64,000 nt of DNA from Thermoanaerobaculia bacterium. GTDB lineage: Bacteria; Acidobacteriota; Thermoanaerobaculia; Gp7-AA8. Made by a program: the position numbers and the translations under genes. The DNA is taken from assembly GCA_963719365.1 (NCBI GenBank), contig OY970380.1, forward strand, positions 3,506,144 to 3,570,143, given 5' to 3'. Each line of letters opens with the position of its first letter. Position 1 is the first letter of the stretch. Shown here one piece after another: positions 4,207 through 57,315 of this stretch. Under the pieces are notes generated by a model. That model made no database searches and had not been told where the DNA came from. It worked only from the letters and a program-made list of their open reading frames with translations.

Positions 4207-5484
4207 CTACCGAACTCTCACCGTCTGCGCGATGTAGTTTCCATCGCCGTCGCGATAGGCCTTGATCACGACCGAGTCGCCAGCGCGGAGCCGGGCGGCG
4301 GTCGACAATGTGCCCGCTTTCGTGCGGATGGGCAGGTCGTCGAGTGCATAGACGCGGGTGATCAGCCGGTCGTTTTCCGTATCGCGCAGCACGAGTTGGC
4401 TGCTGTCCGCGAGCGTTTGCGTCACGATGCCGTAAATCGTCACGACGCCGAGGTCGGCTACGATGCGTGAGGGGACGGTGTTCACTGACGGTGCTGGCGC
4501 AACGTTGTTCTGATCAGTGAAGTGCAGAGTCGTTGCCACGAATGTTGATCCCGTGTACGAACCGCTGAGCTCGACTTGGTCGCCTGCCTGCACGTCGCGC
4601 GCGCGAACGGCCTTGCCGTCCGGATCGGTCGTCGCGCGAAGGTCGACTGCAACTGATCCTCGTCCGGCATCGACCTGGATGACGTTGTTGCCGCGATCGA
4701 CACGCGTCACGCGGCCACTCAATGCGCCGACGCCGTTCGTGCGCGAGCCTGACTCATTCGCGCTTTGCGTCACCTCGATCGAGCGTGCGCTGAGGTCGGT
4801 ACCGGCAGCGCCACCGTTGATCTCAACACGGATACGGTCGCCGACTTCGAGGTTGGAGATCCGGAACGTGTCGCCGTGATAACTGACCGGTGTTCGTTGC
4901 GGCGTGCGCACGGTCAGCACCTCACGCTGGTCCGTCACGATGACAAGCCGTCCAGCCTCGGCATTGATCTGCTGCAGAACACCTTCGACACGGCCGGGAC
5001 GATCGGGAACGGTGCTCGGCCTGGTGCCCGATGCGGTCGGTGTCGAGATGGACATTGGCGTGCGCGTTTGCCCGACACCTGTTTGCGGCGCGTCGACCGG
5101 ACGGCCGAGGAGAGTGACGCGCTCGGCACGAACGACGTTGCCTCCAGCGCCCGTTCCGCGTACGTCGATCCGGTCTCCCACGCGAACATTGTTGAATCCG
5201 TTCGACCCGACGAAGATCTCCGGCGCGCCGTTGATCGTGCCGCCGAAACCGTTGTACTGCGTCGAGACCGAGTCGGTGTCGATGATGACCTGATCGCTCA
5301 GCGCATCATCAGGCGTGACGATGATGCGGTTGCGCCCGTTGATCGTGTCCGCAACCGTCCCGCTAATGTTCCCGCGAATCCCTTCCTGCACGTCCGCGCT
5401 CGTCCGCCACACAGTACGATCCTGTCCAAAGGCGGCGACAGCAAAAAGCGCCGCGAAGATGAAGATCGCTCGTATTTGTTTCAT
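4207..5484 (-). CDS. secreted protein built from about four tandem OB-fold-like (BOF/YgiW-type) repeats
   Basis: N-terminal signal peptide (MKQIRAIFIFAALFAVAAFGQ). Recurring pattern V..V...T.....GD.I.V.G....G.......I.V (e.g. VGDRIRVEINGGAAGTDLSARSIEV, AGDQVELSGSY, AGDSVVIKAYRDGDGNYIAQTVRV). Confidence 0.5.
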   Translation of the reverse strand: MKQIRAIFIFAALFAVAAFGQDRTVWRTSADVQEGIRGNISGTVADTINGRNRIIVTPDDALSDQVIIDTDSVSTQYNGFGGTINGAPEIFVGSNGFNNVRVGDRIDVRGTGAGGNVVRAERVTLLGRPVDAPQTGVGQTRTPMSISTPTASGTRPSTVPDRPGRVEGVLQQINAEAGRLVIVTDQREVLTVRTPQRTPVSYHGDTFRISNLEVGDRIRVEINGGAAGTDLSARSIEVTQSANESGSRTNGVGALSGRVTRVDRGNNVIQVDAGRGSVAVDLRATTDPDGKAVRARDVQAGDQVELSGSYTGSTFVATTLHFTDQNNVAPAPSVNTVPSRIVADLGVVTIYGIVTQTLADSSQLVLRDTENDRLITRVYALDDLPIRTKAGTLSTAARLRAGDSVVIKAYRDGDGNYIAQTVRVR

Positions 5485-5608
5485 GGGTGCCTCCCGAAGC
5501 TGAGACGGCGCAAGAGCGTTGCCAGTAACGGGGTTGCGGAGTTTCGAGGTTGCGGAGGCATGCGAGACTTCGGGTGACGCTGCGAGACCTCGCGACCGCG
5601 CACCCTCG

Positions 5609-6892
5609 TTACCGCGATGCCACCATTTGCCCGCCGATCCAGCATTCGCGGACGACGCGGTCGTCGCCGGTGAAGATCAGGCCGGCCAGCAGGTCTTCGA
5701 CGGATGAGGCGCGCTCGCTGCGCAATTCCACCAGCGGCGTCGATTTCAAATCGAGCATGACGAAGTCGGCGGACTTGCCGGCCTCGAGACTGCCGCATTC
5801 GTCGCCGAGGGAGAGGGCGCGGGCGCCGCCGAGCGTAGCCAGGTACCAGAGTTGGATCGGGCTCAGCGAGACACCCTGAACCTGCTGCACCTTGTATGCG
5901 TCGGCCATCGTCGTGAACATCGACGGCGTCGTTCCCGCGCCGATGTCGGTTCCGAGGCCGACGACGACGCCGGCTTCGAGCGTGTGATGCAGGCGAAAAA
6001 GGCCGCTGCCGAGGAAGAGGTTGGAGTTCGGGCAGTGCGCGATGCGGGAACCACGGCGCGCCAGCAGCTCCAGCTCTTCTTCGCTGAGATAGACGCCGTG
6101 CGCGAGCACCGTCCGCTCGTCGAGGAGGCCATAGCGGTCGTAGACGTCGGCGTACTCGGCTTCGGGGAAGAGGTCGTGAACCCATTGCACTTCGTTGCGG
6201 TTCTCGGAGATGTGCGAGTGAACGTAGGCGTCCGGAAACTCGGCTTTGAGCTGGCCGGCCGCTTCGAGCAGCTCCGGCGTCGACGTCGGCGCGAAACGCG
6301 GCGTGATGGCGTAGCGAAGCAGGCCGCGGTTGTGCCATTTCTGCAGGAGCGAGCGGCTCTGCTCGTAGGAATCGCGCGGCGATTCCAGCAACGAGTCGGG
6401 CGCGTTGCGGTCCATCATCGTCTTGCCGATGATTGCGCGAAATCCGCGCCGCTCCGCCTCCGCGAAAAAGATGTCGGTGGCCTCTTCGTGAATCGTCGAA
6501 AAGATCAGCGCGCAGAGCGTTCCGTTGCGAAGCAGCTCGTCGAAGAAAACGCGCGCCACCATCGCCGCATGGCTCGGATCTTTGAACTTGGCCTCGGTCG
6601 GAAACGTGTAGCGGTTCAGCCATTCGAGCAGATCGCCGCCGTACGATCCAATCATCTCGAGCTGCGGCGCGTGAAGGTGTGTGTCGACGAATCCCGGCGC
6701 GATCACGATGTCGCGGCCGAGTTGCGTGAGGCTCGAGCTCTGCCGCGGTACGTCGCGCCAGTCGCCGATTCCGACGATGCGAGCGCCGTCGATGGCCAGA
6801 AAACCATCGTCGTAGTACGCGTACGACTTCGCCGGATCCGTTGTGAAGGGATCAGCGATGGGCGTGAAGACCCGGGCCCGAAAGACTCTCAC
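5609..6892 (-). CDS. guaD: guanine deaminase (amidohydrolase superfamily)
   Basis: Metal-binding DTHLHAPQ motif, internal HSHISE, and the PNSNLFLGSG motif typical of guanine deaminases. Product is about 427 aa. Confidence 0.65.
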   Translation of the reverse strand: MRVFRARVFTPIADPFTTDPAKSYAYYDDGFLAIDGARIVGIGDWRDVPRQSSSLTQLGRDIVIAPGFVDTHLHAPQLEMIGSYGGDLLEWLNRYTFPTEAKFKDPSHAAMVARVFFDELLRNGTLCALIFSTIHEEATDIFFAEAERRGFRAIIGKTMMDRNAPDSLLESPRDSYEQSRSLLQKWHNRGLLRYAITPRFAPTSTPELLEAAGQLKAEFPDAYVHSHISENRNEVQWVHDLFPEAEYADVYDRYGLLDERTVLAHGVYLSEEELELLARRGSRIAHCPNSNLFLGSGLFRLHHTLEAGVVVGLGTDIGAGTTPSMFTTMADAYKVQQVQGVSLSPIQLWYLATLGGARALSLGDECGSLEAGKSADFVMLDLKSTPLVELRSERASSVEDLLAGLIFTGDDRVVRECWIGGQMVASR

Positions 6893-25542: not shown

Positions 25543-25662
25543 GGTATTGCGCGGAGCGCGTTGTCGGTTGTCGGTTGGTTGCGCTACGCGCGTTGTGAGA
25601 ACGGTTTTGACAACGCGGCGGAGCCGCAATCAACCGACAACTGAGAACGCGCGGAGCGCCAC
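25543..25662. repeat. composite hairpin built from CGCGTTGTCGG/CCGACAACGCG units between convergent genes (repeat family 2, copy A)
   Basis: CGCGTTGTCGGTTGTCGGTTGGTTGCG pairs imperfectly with CGCAATCAACCGACAACTGAGAACGCG. Both are flanked by direct GCGCGGAGCGC(G/C) repeats. Confidence 0.5.
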
Positions 25663-31680: not shown

Positions 31681-31692
31681 GTTGAGTAGCTC

Positions 31693-31805
31693 GGTTACTG
31701 GGTTGCCCAGTTACTGGGTTGCCCGGTCGCTGCGTTTGCTCAACATGTCCTAACTGAGCAACTGAGCAACCTGGTAACCCAGCAACCCGCAAACAACCCG
31801 GCAAC
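31693..31805. repeat. intergenic hairpin element made of GGTTGC/GGTTAC units on one arm and GCAACC units on the other (repeat family 1, copy 1)
   Basis: GGTTACTGGGTTGCCCAGTTACTGGGTTGCCC ... GAGCAACCTGGTAACCCAGCAACCCGCAAACAACCCGGCAAC. Lies between mnmE and jag. Confidence 0.5.
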
Positions 31806-32695
31806 TACTCTGCTTGTTTTTGCCGGCGAAGAATCGCCACGCGTTTGTAAAAGCCATCGCCGCGCGATTCGGTCGTCACGTCGGCGTCTTCCTGCAACGT
31901 GAGATGCACGATGCGGCGTTCGATCGGCGTCATCGCCGGCAGGAGCTGCTCGCGCCCGTTCGTGCGAACCTCGTCCGCAAGATCGCGCGCCTTCTCTGCA
32001 AGTTGTTCCGTGCGACGCTCTTTGAACGCTTCGCAATTCAGCTCGATCTCTTTTTCGACAGTGTTGCCAACGAGCGCTTTGTTGCTCAGAACCTGGATCG
32101 CGTCGAGCAGCTCGCCGTGTTGCTCGGTGAGCAGGCGCGCATCGGCGCCAAACAGCCGCACGATGATCTGCGTCTCATTCTCCTCGGTGCGAATCACGAG
32201 CTGCAGATTCGCGAGCTCGATCACGCGCGCGAGCCACGTGCGCGCGACGCCGGCCTGCTCCGACTCCGGTCCCTGCTCGGGAATCTCGCCTGCGAAGCGC
32301 TCGAAATCGCCGGTCTGAAAATCGTCACCATGCTCGCGGCGCGGTCCTCGGCCACGATCGCCGCCGGAGCGTCCGCTTCCACCGCGTCCATCGCCACCTC
32401 GTCCTCGGCCGCGATCCCTGCCGCCTCGACCGCGGCCACCACCACCGCCGCCCGGGCGGCGCGACGGCGCGCCCTGCGAAGACTGACCGTACGCAGCGCT
32501 GGGCGACGATTCCGCCGGACGCGATACCGCGGCGTCGTTCACCTCGGCTTCGACGACGATGCGCTTGAACCCGCCGAGGAAGCCGCGCTTCTCGAGGACG
32601 ACGTGGTAGGTGAGTTGATCGCGGGACACACCGAACGCTTCGGTGGCCATCGTCAACGCTTCGTCGAGACTCTTACCTTCAAATCGCTGAGCCAT
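31805..32695 (-). CDS. jag: Jag/KhpB-like RNA-binding protein (Jag_N, KH and R3H) with an inserted Gly/Arg-rich RGG segment
   Basis: N-terminal Jag-like domain, KH-like region, and the C-terminal R3H signature (IERRIVHLTL...GDGFYKRVAI). Conserved position downstream of yidC. Gly/Arg low-complexity insert at about residues 80-125. Confidence 0.75.
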   Translation of the reverse strand: MAQRFEGKSLDEALTMATEAFGVSRDQLTYHVVLEKRGFLGGFKRIVVEAEVNDAAVSRPAESSPSAAYGQSSQGAPSRRPGGGGGGRGRGGRDRGRGRGGDGRGGSGRSGGDRGRGPRREHGDDFQTGDFERFAGEIPEQGPESEQAGVARTWLARVIELANLQLVIRTEENETQIIVRLFGADARLLTEQHGELLDAIQVLSNKALVGNTVEKEIELNCEAFKERRTEQLAEKARDLADEVRTNGREQLLPAMTPIERRIVHLTLQEDADVTTESRGDGFYKRVAILRRQKQAE

Positions 32696-41911: not shown

Positions 41912-41913
41912 AG

Positions 41914-42005
41914 GGTTGCTGGGTTAGCAGGTTGCCAGGTTGCCTTACTAGCGACGCTCCTGTTCAGCCCTTGGCAACCTAGCAACGCAGCAACCCGGTA
42001 CCAAC
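41914..42005. repeat. intergenic hairpin element of GGTTGC and GCAACC units between gyrB and gyrA (repeat family 1, copy 2)
   Basis: GGTTGCTGGGTTAGCAGGTTGCCAGGTTGCC ... GGCAACCTAGCAACGCAGCAACCCGGTACCAAC. Confidence 0.5.
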
Positions 42006-44972: not shown

Positions 44973-45070
44973 GCGCTGGCGCGCGTTGTCAGAAGAACCA
45001 TCGAGCTATCGAGATCAAACGCGCGAAGCGCGACTAACCGACAACCGACAACGCGCCGAAGGCGCAAAAT
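44973..45070. repeat. hairpin built from CGCGTTGTC / CCGACAACCGACAACGCG units between convergent genes (repeat family 2, copy B)
   Basis: GGCGCGCGTTGTCAGAAGAACC ... CTAACCGACAACCGACAACGCGCCG. Its right arm is the reverse complement of the CGCGTTGTCGGTTGTCGGTT motif at 25557-25576. Confidence 0.5.
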
Positions 45071-53171: not shown

Positions 53172-53870
53172 ATGTTTCCCACAACGCGACGCAGTGTGAT
53201 CGTTGCCCTCGCCAGCGACGACGATGAGCAGCGCCGCCGTGCTTTCGACACGTTCGTCGCCATCTACTGGAAGACGCTCTACAAATATCTGCGCGTCACC
53301 GATCGCCGCAACGAAACAGACGCCGAGGATCTGACGCAGGCGTTCCTGGCGAAGTGCTTCGAGAGCGGATCGCTCGCAAATTACGACGCGACGAAAGCGT
53401 CGTTCCGGACGTTTCTGAGAGTGCTCTTCGATCGTTTCGCCGCGAACGAATTCAAAGCATCGCAACGGCAGAAGCGTGGCGGCGGAGCGATTCCGCTCGA
53501 TTTCGAAAACGCGGAACAGGAGATCGCGCGCGAGCACGATCGCGGCGGATCGCCCGAAGACTACTTTCAGCGAGAGTGGGTGCGCAGCGTCTTCGCGCTC
53601 GCGGTCGAGCGGCTGCGCGACGAATGCGCCGGCGCCGGCAGGCAGACGCATTTCGCGATCTTCGAAGCCTACGATCTCGATGAGACATCGCGCTTGTCCT
53701 ATCGAGAAACCGGCGATCGCTTCGGCCTCAGCGAGTCGATGGTGACGAACTGGCTCGCGGCAACGCGCCATCGTTTCCGTGCGATCGTGCTCGACGTGCT
53801 TCGCGAAGCAACCGCCTCGGACGCCGAGTACCGCAACGAAGTGCGCGCACTTCTCGGAGTCGATGCATGA
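53172..53870 (+). CDS. ECF-type RNA polymerase sigma factor
   Basis: Region 2-like DAEDLTQAFLAKCF and region 4 HTH SYRETGDRFGLSESMVTNWLAATRHRF. Confidence 0.65.
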   Translation: MFPTTRRSVIVALASDDDEQRRRAFDTFVAIYWKTLYKYLRVTDRRNETDAEDLTQAFLAKCFESGSLANYDATKASFRTFLRVLFDRFAANEFKASQRQKRGGGAIPLDFENAEQEIAREHDRGGSPEDYFQREWVRSVFALAVERLRDECAGAGRQTHFAIFEAYDLDETSRLSYRETGDRFGLSESMVTNWLAATRHRFRAIVLDVLREATASDAEYRNEVRALLGVDA

Positions 53871-54751
53871 CCTGGCTTTCGGACAACGCCGTCGCGCATC
53901 TCCGCGCGGTTGCCGAGCAGCCTGATTTCAGCGCCACGCGCTACCGTATCGAGCGCGAGCTGGCTCGCGGCGGAATGGGCGTCGTCTACGAAGCGGAAGA
54001 CACGGAGCTGCATCGCCGCGTCGCCATCAAAGTCCTCGCCAGCGAGCTCGCCTCGGCTGACTCTGTCGAACGCATGCGCGCCGAGGCGCGGACGATCGCG
54101 CGGCTGGAACACCCAGGCATCGTGCCGCTCCACGACCTCGGCATCCTTCCCGACGGCCGCATCTGGTACGCGATGAAGCTCGTGCGCGGACGGAGACTCG
54201 ATGAGCTGGACGCGCAGCCGCTCGAGTTGCTGCGCGTTTTCCAGCGCATCTGTGAAAGCGTCGCCTTCGCGCACGCAAATGGCGTCGTCCACTGCGACCT
54301 CAAGCCCGAGAACGTAATGCTCGGCGACTTCGGCGAAGTGCTGGTGATGGATTGGGGAGTCGCGCGCGAGATCGGCAGCGCCGCGGGAGTCATCGCCGGA
54401 ACGCGAGGCTTCATGGCGCCGGAACAGGAGAACGGAATCGCAATCGATGCCGCAGCCGACGTTTTCGCCCTCGGCGCGATGTTGCGCGCGTTGCTCCCCG
54501 TAAAGTTGCCGAAGCCGCTGTCTGCGATCTGCGCGAAGGCGACGGCTCCAAATCCGCGCGATCGGTACCCGTCGGCGCGCGATCTCGCAGCCGACGTGAC
54601 GCTCTGGCTCGACAACAAGCCGGTCAGCGCGTATCGCGAGAACGTCATCGAGCGAATCAACCGCTGGCTCATCCGCAACCGCGCCCTCGTCATGATCGTC
54701 GCCGCCTATCTTCTGATGCGCGTCATCATCGTGATCTGGTTTGGACGATGA
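53867..54751 (+). CDS. Hanks-type serine/threonine protein kinase with C-terminal TM anchor
   Basis: VAIK lysine, HCDLKPEN catalytic loop, DWG (DFG-equivalent), APE, and a C-terminal hydrophobic helix (LVMIVAAYLLMRVIIVIWF). ATGA overlap with the sigma factor gene. Confidence 0.85.
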   Translation: MTWLSDNAVAHLRAVAEQPDFSATRYRIERELARGGMGVVYEAEDTELHRRVAIKVLASELASADSVERMRAEARTIARLEHPGIVPLHDLGILPDGRIWYAMKLVRGRRLDELDAQPLELLRVFQRICESVAFAHANGVVHCDLKPENVMLGDFGEVLVMDWGVAREIGSAAGVIAGTRGFMAPEQENGIAIDAAADVFALGAMLRALLPVKLPKPLSAICAKATAPNPRDRYPSARDLAADVTLWLDNKPVSAYRENVIERINRWLIRNRALVMIVAAYLLMRVIIVIWFGR

Positions 54752-54808
54752 CGTACGTTAAAGGATTTTCGGAAGACGTTGAATAGACTCACTGGAGGAA
54801 CAAACGAC

Positions 54809-55666
54809 ATGAACAAAATCCTGGTAGGACTTCTCCTCGGCGCCGGATTGGGCGCGATCGACGGCCTGACGGCGTGGTTCACACCTGCGGTGCGCGCGGA
54901 CATCATCGGCATCGTCATCGGCTCGACGTTCAAAGGGATGATCGCCGGTATGGCCGCCGGATGGTTTGCGCGCAAAGTGAAATCCGTCGCCTGGGGTATC
55001 GCCTTCGGTCTGCTCGTCGGCGCGCTGCTCGCGTACGGCGTCGCCGCGATGCAGCACGGCTACTACTTCGAGATCATGTTGCCAGGATCGATCGTCGGCG
55101 CCATCGTCGGCTGGGCCACCCAGCGATACGGACGTCCCGTTGGCGGCAGCGCAACGGCGTCAACACTCGCGGCGATGTTCGTCGTGTTCATCACCGTCAA
55201 CGCCCACGCCGCCGAGCCGGTGAAAGCCGCCGATGCCTTCGCGCATCTGAAGTTGCTGGCGGGAACGTGGAACGGACACGCGATGACGCCGGACGGTCCG
55301 GCCACGAGCGTCAGTTACCGGCTCACCGCCGGTGGCACGACAGTGATGGAGACGCTTTTCGGCGGCACACCGCACGAGATGCTCACGCTCTACACGCTCA
55401 ACGGCAACGACGTCGTAGCCACACATTTCTGCGGCGCGGACAATCAGCCGGTGATGAAACTCGACAAGTCGAAGTCGTCGCCGGACCGCCTCGTCTTCTC
55501 CTTCGTCAGCGTCGATGGCGAGCACGCCAAAGACCATCCGCACGTTCACGACGGCTTCATCCACTTCGCCGGCGACGATCAGATCGACGCATCGTGGGCC
55601 ATGCAAAATCCCGACGGCGCCGCGTTCGAGCACAGCCCGAAGTTCTTCTTGACGAGGGCGAAGTAG
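54809..55666 (+). CDS. membrane protein: five Gly-rich TM helices plus a C-terminal extracytoplasmic beta-rich domain
   Basis: GGAGGA RBS 7 nt before the ATG at 54809. N-terminal 120 aa are hydrophobic (GAGLGAIDG, GIVIGSTFKGMIAGMAAGWF). The C-terminal 165 aa are soluble (LAGTWNGHAMTPDG...). An internal ATG at 55175 followed by a signal-peptide-like segment leaves open a two-protein reading. Confidence 0.45.
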   Translation: MNKILVGLLLGAGLGAIDGLTAWFTPAVRADIIGIVIGSTFKGMIAGMAAGWFARKVKSVAWGIAFGLLVGALLAYGVAAMQHGYYFEIMLPGSIVGAIVGWATQRYGRPVGGSATASTLAAMFVVFITVNAHAAEPVKAADAFAHLKLLAGTWNGHAMTPDGPATSVSYRLTAGGTTVMETLFGGTPHEMLTLYTLNGNDVVATHFCGADNQPVMKLDKSKSSPDRLVFSFVSVDGEHAKDHPHVHDGFIHFAGDDQIDASWAMQNPDGAAFEHSPKFFLTRAK

Positions 55667-55724
55667 TCAATCCCCAGATCCATGAAGGCCCTTCTTAGCT
55701 CGCCTGAATCTACCAGGCGTGGAA

Positions 55725-55812
55725 GGGGTCAGACCGAAAGTGAAAGTGACGAAAGATGGCATTGGCCGGAAGCGCAGACAATTTTCGTCACTTTCACTTT
55801 CGGTCTGACCCC
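55725..55812. repeat. perfect 30-bp inverted repeat (GGGGTCAGACCGAAAGTGAAAGTGACGAAA / TTTCGTCACTTTCACTTTCGGTCTGACCCC) with a 28-nt loop
   Basis: Read directly from the sequence. The arms at 55725-55754 and 55783-55812 are exact reverse complements. No U-tract follows. Confidence 0.7.
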
Positions 55813-55865
55813 TCCAGCCAAAGTAATCCATGGGTACAAAACTACAACCGTACTAGCATTGCGGC

Positions 55866-56492
55866 ATGAGACAAATACCTCTGATTCTCTCGCTGCTCTT
55901 CGTCGCTACATCCGCGGTGAGTGCGGAGAAACACTGGGTTCACGAGGATCCCGCGAAGCTGTGTGCCTCGGTGAAAGACAAAGACCTTTGTGCCGATCTG
56001 CTTGCGATTCGGGACCGCGACCAGTTCGCCCGATACGACGCTCTGAATCACCCCGACGACAAGAATCTGGACGAAGTGATTCGGAAGGTCGACCGGGAGA
56101 ATCTCGAACAAGTCGACGCGATCATTCAGAAACATGGCTGGCCCGGAACGTCTCTGGTCGGTGAGAAGGGGAGTGGCAGCGCATGGACCGTGATTCAGCA
56201 CGCCGATCTGGTCACACAGAAAAGGTATCTGCCGGTGATGGTGAAGGCGGCCGACGCGGGCGAGCTCTCGTGGGCGCTCCTGGCAACGACGATCGATCGA
56301 ATTCAGGTGCGGGAGGGCAAGCCCCAAACCTACGGAACGCAGTTCCATCAGGTGAACGGCGAGCTGGTACCCGAACGGATCGAAGATGAAGCGCACGTCG
56401 ACGAACGCCGCAAGAAGGCCGGCTTGCAGCCGCTCGCTGAGTACGCTGCGCTGATGAAGGAGATGTACGCGCGGCCCTCAAAACCGAAGTAG
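55866..56492 (+). CDS. secreted hypothetical protein
   Basis: Signal peptide (MRQIPLILSLLFVATSAVSA). Two Cys (CASVKDKDLCADL). No recognisable catalytic motif. Confidence 0.45.
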   Translation: MRQIPLILSLLFVATSAVSAEKHWVHEDPAKLCASVKDKDLCADLLAIRDRDQFARYDALNHPDDKNLDEVIRKVDRENLEQVDAIIQKHGWPGTSLVGEKGSGSAWTVIQHADLVTQKRYLPVMVKAADAGELSWALLATTIDRIQVREGKPQTYGTQFHQVNGELVPERIEDEAHVDERRKKAGLQPLAEYAALMKEMYARPSKPK

Positions 56493-56526: not shown

Positions 56527-57315
56527 TTGACAATCCCCCGATCGGACTTCAATGTTTCCCTCTGGCTTTCCGCGCACCGATGCGGCGGCCAGAGGAGCCA
56601 ACCCATCATCACCGTCGACCAGCTTCCTGACAGCCGCCGCGCCATCCTGCTCGCTCTCAAACGGCAGGGCCCTTCCACGATCGCGCAGCTTGCCCATCCG
56701 CTGCAATTGACGGGCGAGGCGGTGCGCCAGCAGTTGCTGCAGCTCCAGCGCGAAGGATGGATCGAGTCACGCGTCGCGCGCGGGGACGAGCGCGGACGCA
56801 CGGGACGTCCGGCCACGCGCTACAACCTCACCGAGGCTGGTGATCATCTCTTTCCGAAGAGCTATGACCTGCTCAACGTCGCCGTGATCGACGCCGTGGC
56901 GCAGGAGTTGGGACCCGACGCGGCGGTGCGCGTGCTCAAACGCGTCTGCGATGACCGCGTGGCCATCGAAGAGAAAACACTCCAGGGGATGCCGCTGGAG
57001 TCGCGCGTCGAAGCGCTCAAAGGACTGTACGCCCCCGCCGATCCGTACATGACCAGTGAGCGCGTCGACGACGGCTTCCTCCTCATCGAGCGCAACTGCC
57101 CCTTCTTCAACACCGCTATGCGCCGCCCCACCCTCTGCAGCGTCTCCGTCAACGCCCTCACCCGCCTCCTCGGCGTCCGCGTCGAGCGTGACGAAACATT
57201 CCAATCCGGCGCCGGCCGCTGCGTCTTCCACATCTACGCGAACGAGCCGATCGACGCGAAGGAATGGGATTTCACGCTGGAGGACGAGCTGCCGAAGCAT
57301 GGAGTTCGGACGTAG
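56527..57315 (+). CDS. winged-helix transcriptional regulator (ArsR-like N-terminus with a C-terminal domain, COG2345-like)
   Basis: HTH region RRAILLALKRQGPSTIAQLAHPLQLTGEAVRQQLLQLQREGWIE, then RGRTGRPATRYNLT wing. TTG start is uncertain. Confidence 0.5.
   Translation: MTIPRSDFNVSLWLSAHRCGGQRSQPIITVDQLPDSRRAILLALKRQGPSTIAQLAHPLQLTGEAVRQQLLQLQREGWIESRVARGDERGRTGRPATRYNLTEAGDHLFPKSYDLLNVAVIDAVAQELGPDAAVRVLKRVCDDRVAIEEKTLQGMPLESRVEALKGLYAPADPYMTSERVDDGFLLIERNCPFFNTAMRRPTLCSVSVNALTRLLGVRVERDETFQSGAGRCVFHIYANEPIDAKEWDFTLEDELPKHGVRT

Follow-up and report, generated by a model that had tools for sequence, protein, structure and literature searches.

REPINs consist of two conserved inverted sequences separated by a less conserved spacer, and together these parts form a hairpin of ~100 nt (Bertels & Rainey 2011, PMC3116915). 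The spacing is 71 bp in the GI REPINs of P. fluorescens (PMC3116915), and the RAYT transposases associated with REPINs are described as single-copy, non-jumping genes with vertical inheritance (Group 2 or 3) (PMC3116915; Bertels et al. 2017, PMC5581495; bioRxiv 10.1101/2021.07.10.451892). The genes for TIR-associated tyrosine transposases (TIRYT), as presented by Di Nocera et al. [quoted passage not shown] According to PMC3733652, TIRs make up moderately abundant families that occur as singles, dimers or clusters and sometimes overlap the end of the gene, and one sharply defined TIRYT group is specific to Acidobacteria (T. saanensis, K. versatilis, A. capsulatum and G. mallensis). The mechanistic paradigms for IS200/IS605 elements and TnpA-REP are summarised in PMC3116915, PMC3733652 and bioRxiv 10.1101/2021.07.10.451892.

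The hairpin analysed here is best explained, with a probability of roughly 80%, as one copy of a dispersed, non-coding and non-autonomous REPIN-like repeat family of Thermoanaerobaculia (Acidobacteriota) that is tied to a transposase of the RAYT/TIRYT type. It is not a dedicated regulatory RNA. The copy lies in a stretch of 64,000 nt of Thermoanaerobaculia DNA, hereafter the window, between two plus-strand ORFs, 58 nt after the upstream stop codon (counted to 55725) and 53 nt before the next ORF. The features of the locus are as follows:

54779-55666, plus strand: upstream gene, a 295-aa predicted membrane protein with no Pfam match (context, outside the element)
55671-55830, no strand: 160-nt block with the hairpin inside, shared by the window and the orthologous locus L026, missing from the orthologous loci L024 and L025
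55710-55713, plus strand: CTAC, outside GGGG and exactly 15 nt from its first G, a position-specific flank motif found in a subset of copies
55720-55817, no strand: whole repeat unit (TGGAA, arm, spacer, inverted arm, TCCA(G)), a near-palindromic hairpin, REPIN-like or a TIR dimer
55724-55754, plus strand: left arm, AGGGGTCAGACCGAAAGTGAAAGTGACGAAA, columns 6-31 of which are invariant or nearly so in 26 copies
55755-55782, plus strand: spacer or loop, GATGGCATTGGCCGGAAGCGCAGACAAT, the variable part of the family
55783-55813, plus strand: right arm, the exact reverse complement of the left arm
55866-56492, plus strand: downstream gene, 208 aa, DUF6624 (context, anchor for the comparison of orthologous loci)

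A repeat finder returned a perfect inverted repeat with 31-nt arms, 100% complementary, and a 28-nt loop, which is the longest and the only perfect one among the 25 longest local inverted repeats listed for the window. An earlier note on this DNA, made from the sequence alone, had reported an intergenic perfect repeat with the same loop and a 30-bp stem (55725-55754, GGGGTCAGACCGAAAGTGAAAGTGACGAAA, with its exact reverse complement at 55783-55812). The repeat is real, and an additional A/T pair extends the stem by 1 bp. The distances given for the flanking genes (59 and 54 nt) were each off by one. With one bulged A the stem continues to TGGA/TCCA, which gives the element 55720-55817, and homology was confined to ~55718-55820 when window positions 55640-55870 were compared by BLAST with all fetched loci. 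The first 8 nt of the left arm after its A read GGGGTCAG, and the tandem that the earlier note had noticed in the arms, GAAAGTGAAAGTGA, is present. Its remark that no other copy was seen in the window was borne out by searches with the 30-mer and with a 16-mer, neither of which found a second copy in the 64 kb at up to 3 mismatches; the number of chance matches to the 30-mer expected from shuffles was 0.00. An exact look-up of the upstream membrane protein gave no match, probably because the called start differs.

The proposed folding check showed a stem far beyond chance. RNA folding in a 204-nt context gave -89.6 and -99 kcal/mol with z = -8.0 and -8.5, and DNA folding gave z = -12 for either strand. 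When one arm was folded as DNA, alone or together with its flank, its stability did not exceed that of shuffled sequences (-0.7 and -2.2 kcal/mol; z = +0.4 and +0.5), and the halves of the unit are thus not classical REP palindromes. The high stability (z ~-8) and the position between two same-strand genes, 58 nt past a stop codon, would suit an RNA structure selected by the host, that is, a small RNA, a terminator that lacks a U-tract or a hairpin that stabilises or processes mRNA; effects of REP and MITE hairpins on mRNA stability are reported for other bacteria (PMC3733652). This explanation, which covers the small RNA and the regulatory hairpin offered in the earlier note as reasons for the stem, is nevertheless unlikely. 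A permissive Rfam scan of 55400-56100 found no family at threshold, the best match being mir-335 with 40.1 bits vs 64, and the sub-threshold matches were generic miRNA-hairpin look-alikes on both strands, as any long perfect hairpin gives. Terminator-like sites numbered 0 in 55500-56000, and no promoter-like sites were found there. The sequence 3' of the stem, CCAGCCAAAG, has no T-run, in agreement with the missing U-tract reported before, and the hairpin differs from an intrinsic terminator both in this respect and in not being of the short stem-loop type.

The search for further copies, which the earlier note had put forward as a test for a MITE, was strongly positive in Thermoanaerobaculia genomes and soil metagenomes, where the arm GGGGTCAGACCGAAAGTGAAAGTGACG recurs as hairpins of 88-90 nt at 74 distinct sites. 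Scanning one genome per species with the outer 18 nt of the arm (GGGGTCAGACCGAAAGTG) gave matches on 22 genome-contig stretches, 18 of which come from two Thermoanaerobaculia MAGs, Chersky.9_17 (JADGNZ01) and SMAG_U6997 (DATAMS01). These contain the exact 18-mer 27 and 13 times, respectively, mostly as +/- pairs spaced 69-71 nt apart, corresponding to hairpins of 87-90 nt. The remaining four stretches carry single matches and belong to unrelated taxa, namely Alistipes, Pseudonocardiaceae, Lacunisphaera and a gammaproteobacterium. A scan of metagenomes with a degenerate 26-mer covering two arm variants added 57 more stretches, and the density of hairpins on the matching metagenome contigs is ~1 per 85 kb, vs 1 per 64 kb in the window. 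The pooled loci hold 188 arms, forming 76 paired units (74 unique) and leaving 36 solo arms; 64 of the paired units are 88-90 nt long, and clusters of repeats occur in L006, L017 and L022. Counted from the first G, the typical perfect repeat in the pooled loci measures 26-30 nt. Consequently, the perfection of the window copy is ordinary for the family, and the conclusion drawn from such perfection in the earlier note, recent origin or selection, holds only in part.

With genes predicted by a crude GC3-based model, 72 of the 74 unique units fall between ORFs. The same sequence is found in every gene-orientation context (++ in 17 cases, -- in 13, divergent -+ in 10 and convergent +- in 8) and also flanks a transposase gene, which further argues against an RNA role as the reason for the hairpin. 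The distribution also bears on a palindromic operator for a local DNA-binding protein. Candidate binders would be the product of the winged-helix gene at 56527-57315 or the sigma/kinase pair encoded upstream of the hairpin. The palindrome does lie near regulator genes. However, dozens of unrelated loci have identical arms but lack those neighbours, tblastn with the neighbouring proteins of the window detected no synteny at the first 22 repeat-bearing loci, and half-sites of 31 nt set 28 nt apart are far beyond the geometry of an operator. Since orthologous loci, moreover, keep the downstream gene without the hairpin, an operator is scarcely credible. An integron attC site and a CRISPR-like repeat-spacer array were considered and set aside as improbable, since the units are scattered one by one, their arms are inverted repeats and not direct ones, and the spacers have diverged from a few ancestors.

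Individual loci depart from the common form. At L058 (5268-5331) 26-nt arm matches are only 12 nt apart, a short-spacer variant that possibly arose by spacer deletion. At L016 (4827-5168), in one of the MAGs, a hairpin and ~150 nt of flank are tandemly duplicated with a period of 243 nt and identical spacers, and a single copy occupies a related site in the other MAG (L019, 6766-6864), with a similar spacer and flank in opposite orientation as fetched.

The window also contains hairpin repeats of other kinds. A second long intergenic inverted repeat, built of GTTGTCGG units (GCGCGTTGTCGGTTGTCGGTTGG...), is found at 25549-25659 and 44985-45065; the two sites share the 15-mer GTTGTCGGTTGTCGG, on opposite strands, and the repeat may constitute a further family of this genome. 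Intergenic hairpins of a third kind, at 31690-31810 and 41913-41996, have heptad-like GGTTGCY/GGGTTGC units (GGGTTGCTGGGTTAGCAGGTTGCCAGGTTGCC...), and GGGTTGCTGGGTT recurs in the window on both strands as well as at ~4890-4920 of L025, a related metagenome contig, where it immediately precedes the DUF6624 ortholog. The genome seems rich in low-complexity hairpin repeats.

The anatomy of the family became apparent when 26 copies were aligned. With few exceptions, columns 6-31 and the right-arm positions that pair with them do not vary at all or are conserved to 90% or more, and over ~10 columns in the centre of the spacer no base reaches a majority. Pairing is kept in 93.5% of the cells. Two-sided changes are found at columns 17/88, 18/87 and 24/81, and mark a variant arm, CCGAAGTGGAAGTG, that is present on both sides of some copies and on one side of the hybrid copy L010. 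The spacers are non-random and fall into diverged subfamilies, that is, diverged versions of a few ancestral spacers. The type found in the window, GAAGATGGCAYTGGC..GGAAGC.CAGACAATTTT, recurs in diverged form at the unrelated loci L010, L062, L056 and L068, and in reverse orientation at L028, L070, L071 and L083. L010 was considered as an orthologous locus on account of its similar spacer, yet tblastn with the neighbouring proteins of the window revealed no synteny, and the likeness is explained by the shared spacer subfamily. Relative to the flanks and the transposase gene, homologous spacers can point either way (e.g. L006 7180-7278 vs L017 5764-5862), which suggests that the spacer is flipped by recombination between the arms. 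As the same spacer is found both ways round, its orientation is uninformative with respect to an RNA role.

Beyond GGGG most copies continue with YGGAA...TTCCR, those of a minority subfamily with GGTAT...ATACC, and the ends of the unit are (Y)GGAAGGGG and CCCCTTCC(R). The check for target-site duplications was negative across the family, no direct repeats at the unit termini being visible by eye in >60 copies with readable flanks; such a lack is as expected for Y1 transposition. GTAG abutting the stem was absent. CTAC, which is GTAG on the other strand, is located ~10 nt outside the TGGAA end, at -15 from the first G, in 16/142 flanks, where ~0.6 would be expected by chance. This motif may be part of a recognition or cleavage signal.

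The history of the window copy was followed through homologs of the DUF6624 protein, which led to three usable loci (L024, L025 and L026). At L026 (93% protein identity) a hairpin with an identical spacer is present, carrying two uncompensated arm substitutions and one extra C at its outer end, in surroundings that are 92.7% identical to the window over 234 nt. The 160-nt block that contains the hairpin is missing from L024 (83%) and L025 (76%), where the last codons of the upstream gene still align, as do 45 nt before the start of DUF6624. A hairpin that is absent from an otherwise aligned intergenic region at two orthologous loci, and whose arms have changed without compensation in the closest ortholog, is not readily reconciled with selection for an RNA structure. 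From the aligned sequences, the most parsimonious history would be a single insertion on the shared branch of the window and L026. Such an insertion would predate the split from the relative with the 93%-identical neighbouring protein, which qualifies the recent origin proposed in the earlier note.

Still, the edges of the block do not make a simple picture. They carry an imperfect direct repeat of ~9 nt (AAGTAGTCAATCC at 55661-55673 and AAGTAATCC at 55821-55829, with the pattern AAGTA[GTCA]ATCC / AAGTAATCC), which lies 47-52 nt outside the shared unit on the left, and the indel of 160 nt exceeds the ~98 nt of the repeat unit. An indel of this size with a repeat at its edges is not what a clean Y1 insertion predicts. 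The difference could instead be a microhomology deletion in the lineages of L024 and L025, as both the excess of the block over the shared unit and the imperfect direct repeat would allow, along with the further rearrangement of L024 and L025 upstream; a single insertion remains the more parsimonious reading. As a separate observation, the genes for the sigma-factor-like protein, the Ser/Thr kinase and the membrane protein (53172-55666) are missing from L024 (4315-5000) and L025 (4877-5000), and only the last ~13-27 codons of the membrane protein are kept there; this is therefore a variable region. The DUF6624 gene is kept at both loci and the hairpin is absent.

These comparisons also touch on the conservation of the arms. 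Inserted arms change about as fast as their surroundings. The family-wide conservation is therefore probably better accounted for by repair that uses the partner arm as its template, or by selection acting between units as they replicate, than by selection at each site.

In two related genomes the repeats are physically linked to a transposase gene. In L006 the sequence ...GHLFQGRFKGHLVDSEAYLLSLSRYIVLNPVRA... is encoded just upstream of a hairpin, and L017 contains a complete gene (4658-5635, minus strand, GTG start, 325 aa). The L017 protein matches Pfam Y1_Tnp above threshold (8.8e-10, 39.2 bits, cut-off 23) and NCBIfam REP_Tyr_transpos with 71.5 bits (6.4e-20), which is below the equivalog cut-off of 80. 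Its sole PDB match is E. coli TnpA-REP (4ER8), and the alignment takes in both the HUH motif (NHYHL) and the tyrosine motif (RYIVLNPV; Y-x-x-x-NPV). Homologs are labelled by their sources as 'REP element-mobilizing transposase RayT' (JGI) or 'REP-associated tyrosine transposase', and those with named hosts are from Thermoanaerobaculia. The ~150 aa that the protein has in addition at its C-terminus match no Pfam family; a DnaA-C-like helix-turn-helix in the C-terminal ~90 residues was considered and dropped as unsupported, no Pfam family being found at E <= 10. In L017 the gene is flanked by a hairpin at 5764-5862 and an extra arm on the 5' side and by a hairpin at 4545-4641 on the 3' side, and it is bracketed in the same manner in L006 and L014. 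In Chersky.9_17 the gene or fragments of it occur at at least four loci (L006 twice, L014 and L011), each adjoining hairpins, and one pair shares ~93% amino-acid identity. This multicopy pattern is IS-like, unlike the single-copy RAYTs of classical REPIN systems.

Further peculiarities were observed in the transposase gene. Its stop codon is the TGA inside GAAAGTGAAAG, in the left arm of the downstream hairpin (L027 1086-1114; L006 767-789), so that the C-terminus reads ...KGSDRK*. The downstream hairpin could influence the translation or stability of the transposase mRNA. In addition, the genes contain a degenerate in-frame copy of the repeat (...FVEGVKSKVKVT... in the protein) between the catalytic domain and the C-terminal region, at 413-510 of L006, 4991-5020 of L017 and ~745-830 of L027. 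The paralog P0147 (63% identical) has an unrelated linker of similar length. Judged from these reading frames, the repeat appears to be built into the transposase protein.

The Y1/HUH transposase gene is the only gene found bracketed by the arms, and this is of importance for the MITE-like option raised in the earlier note. MITEs originate from insertion sequences of the DDE type and show target-site duplications. The present repeat shares with the bacterial elements of this type (Correia/NEMIS, RUP, ERIC) that it is small, non-coding, intergenic, hairpin-forming and multicopy. A classical MITE, that is, an internally deleted derivative of a DDE insertion sequence moved by cut-and-paste with target-site duplication, would account for the long terminal inverted repeats, the small size and the imperfect ~9-nt direct repeat that edges the extra block at the window locus. 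The GGGG at the start of the arm would fit as well, since the ends of the Tn3 family start with GGGG. However, neither a DDE parent nor a target-site duplication was seen, terminal direct repeats being absent across >60 copies with readable flanks; the direct repeat of the window locus lies well outside the unit on the left and not at its ends; and a plasmid collection rich in Tn3-family elements gave no match to the repeat. A classical MITE is thus very unlikely. An end of a Tn3-family element was considered and dropped, as there are no 5-bp duplications, no plasmid match and a linked gene that encodes a Y1 transposase. The MITE-like proposal was essentially right, as the further copies show; with an associated enzyme that is HUH/Y1 and not DDE, and no family-wide target-site duplication seen, REPIN-like repeat or TIR dimer is the more precise name.

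In the 64-kb window itself no copy of the transposase was found by tblastn. The homolog P0123, however, is 89% identical to the L017 protein, and P0123 and the DUF6624 protein of the window are each recorded on a 5,889,301-bp contig from the same three sources, and both are found in the Logan run ERR11594404. Both ends of the 1114-bp Logan contig of P0123 (L027) fall within arms of the repeat, a right arm at its start (TTTTCGTCACTTTCACTTTCGGTCTGACCC...) and a left arm at its end (...GGAAGGGGTCAGACCGAAAGTGAAAGTGA). On the strength of the shared contig record, the shared run and the arm-ended P0123 contig, the organism of the window very probably carries a transposase bracketed by the same repeat. 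In that run a second contig, L001 (3.7 kb), starts at window position 55785, inside the right arm, and encodes exactly the DUF6624 protein of the window and its two downstream neighbours. These two contigs of ERR11594404 (L001 at its start, L027 at both ends) terminate in arms, and the repeat therefore fragments assemblies of this organism.

With the linked gene at hand, the family can be set against the described systems. IS200/IS605 elements have short, imperfect, sub-terminal hairpins at their ends, the left one differing from the right. The present system shares with them an HUH/Y1 transposase, DNA hairpins at the element ends and the lack of a target-site duplication; it differs in carrying the same near-perfect palindrome of 88-90 nt on both sides, and in that its only PDB match is TnpA-REP and not the TnpA of IS608 or ISDra2. 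The likeness to REPINs extends to the conserved inverted halves, the variable spacer, the hairpin, the almost exclusively extragenic location and the doublets that flank a transposase gene, and the distance between the starts of the conserved cores is 69-71 nt, vs 71 bp in the GI REPINs of P. fluorescens. Conversely, the halves are not short palindromes of ~14 bp and no GTAG abuts the stem; the transposase has 325 aa, vs 165 aa for E. coli TnpA-REP, and scores below the NCBIfam equivalog cut-off; it is present at several loci in at least one genome, in contrast to the single-copy RAYT; and the copies look like tens per genome, not hundreds.

A closer match than the REPIN, as judged from the description in PMC3733652, is the TIRYT/TIRtron class. 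As in the systems described there, a RAYT-like Y1 gene is flanked by long inverted repeats, these form dimers and clusters, the repeat overlaps the 3' end of the gene, and the start of the arm, GGGGTCAG, fits GGGGWSAS. Two differences were noted: neither a Thermoanaerobaculia host nor the present repeat sequence appears in the text of PMC3733652 that was consulted, and the gene is flanked here by complete doublets, i.e. hairpins, where single repeats are described. A text search combining Acidobacteria and RAYT surfaced no description of the present family in Thermoanaerobaculia.

In combination, the unit is a doublet of a conserved sequence of ~27-35 nt, inverted around a variable spacer of ~30 nt, and we infer that it is mobilised by the linked transposase. 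By analogy with the TnpA of IS200/IS605 and with E. coli TnpA-REP, the transposase would recognise the arm or the hairpin on single-stranded DNA, and the tyrosine would cleave at a nearby short motif, for which the positioned CTAC is a candidate. The unit would then be moved or copied without target-site duplication. Only lineages with intact arms would keep replicating, which is proposed as the reason why the arms are near-invariant across species while the spacers diverge. At the present locus (55720-55817) the element most likely arrived by insertion before the split from the closest relative. If the flanking same-strand genes share an mRNA, the hairpin would be transcribed, and the strong stem could possibly alter the stability of that mRNA as a side effect.

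A more far-reaching reading holds that the repeats represent a so far undescribed REPIN-like system in Acidobacteriota, driven by a distinct clade of two-domain RAYT-type transposases; this is put forward tentatively, and we regard it as rather doubtful. The stop codon inside an arm hints that transposase expression is under the control of the hairpin, and the degenerate in-frame copy in the linker hints that the protein has incorporated the repeat.

As one copy of a dispersed repeat family, the striking hairpin of the window is explained without a new RNA or regulator, and annotators can therefore mask it as such. The main curiosities sit in the transposase gene rather than in the window copy, namely the stop codon in an arm, the in-frame repeat and the multicopy state in one genome. 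The hairpins break short-read assemblies, and awareness of them is useful for interpreting fragmented metagenome bins. The family could also serve strain typing and the study of how repeats persist. With its 74 unique copies, conserved arms, drifting spacers and presence or absence between relatives, it adds a case from Thermoanaerobaculia, known here only from metagenomes, to the partnerships between hairpin repeats and tyrosine transposases that have been studied mostly in Proteobacteria.
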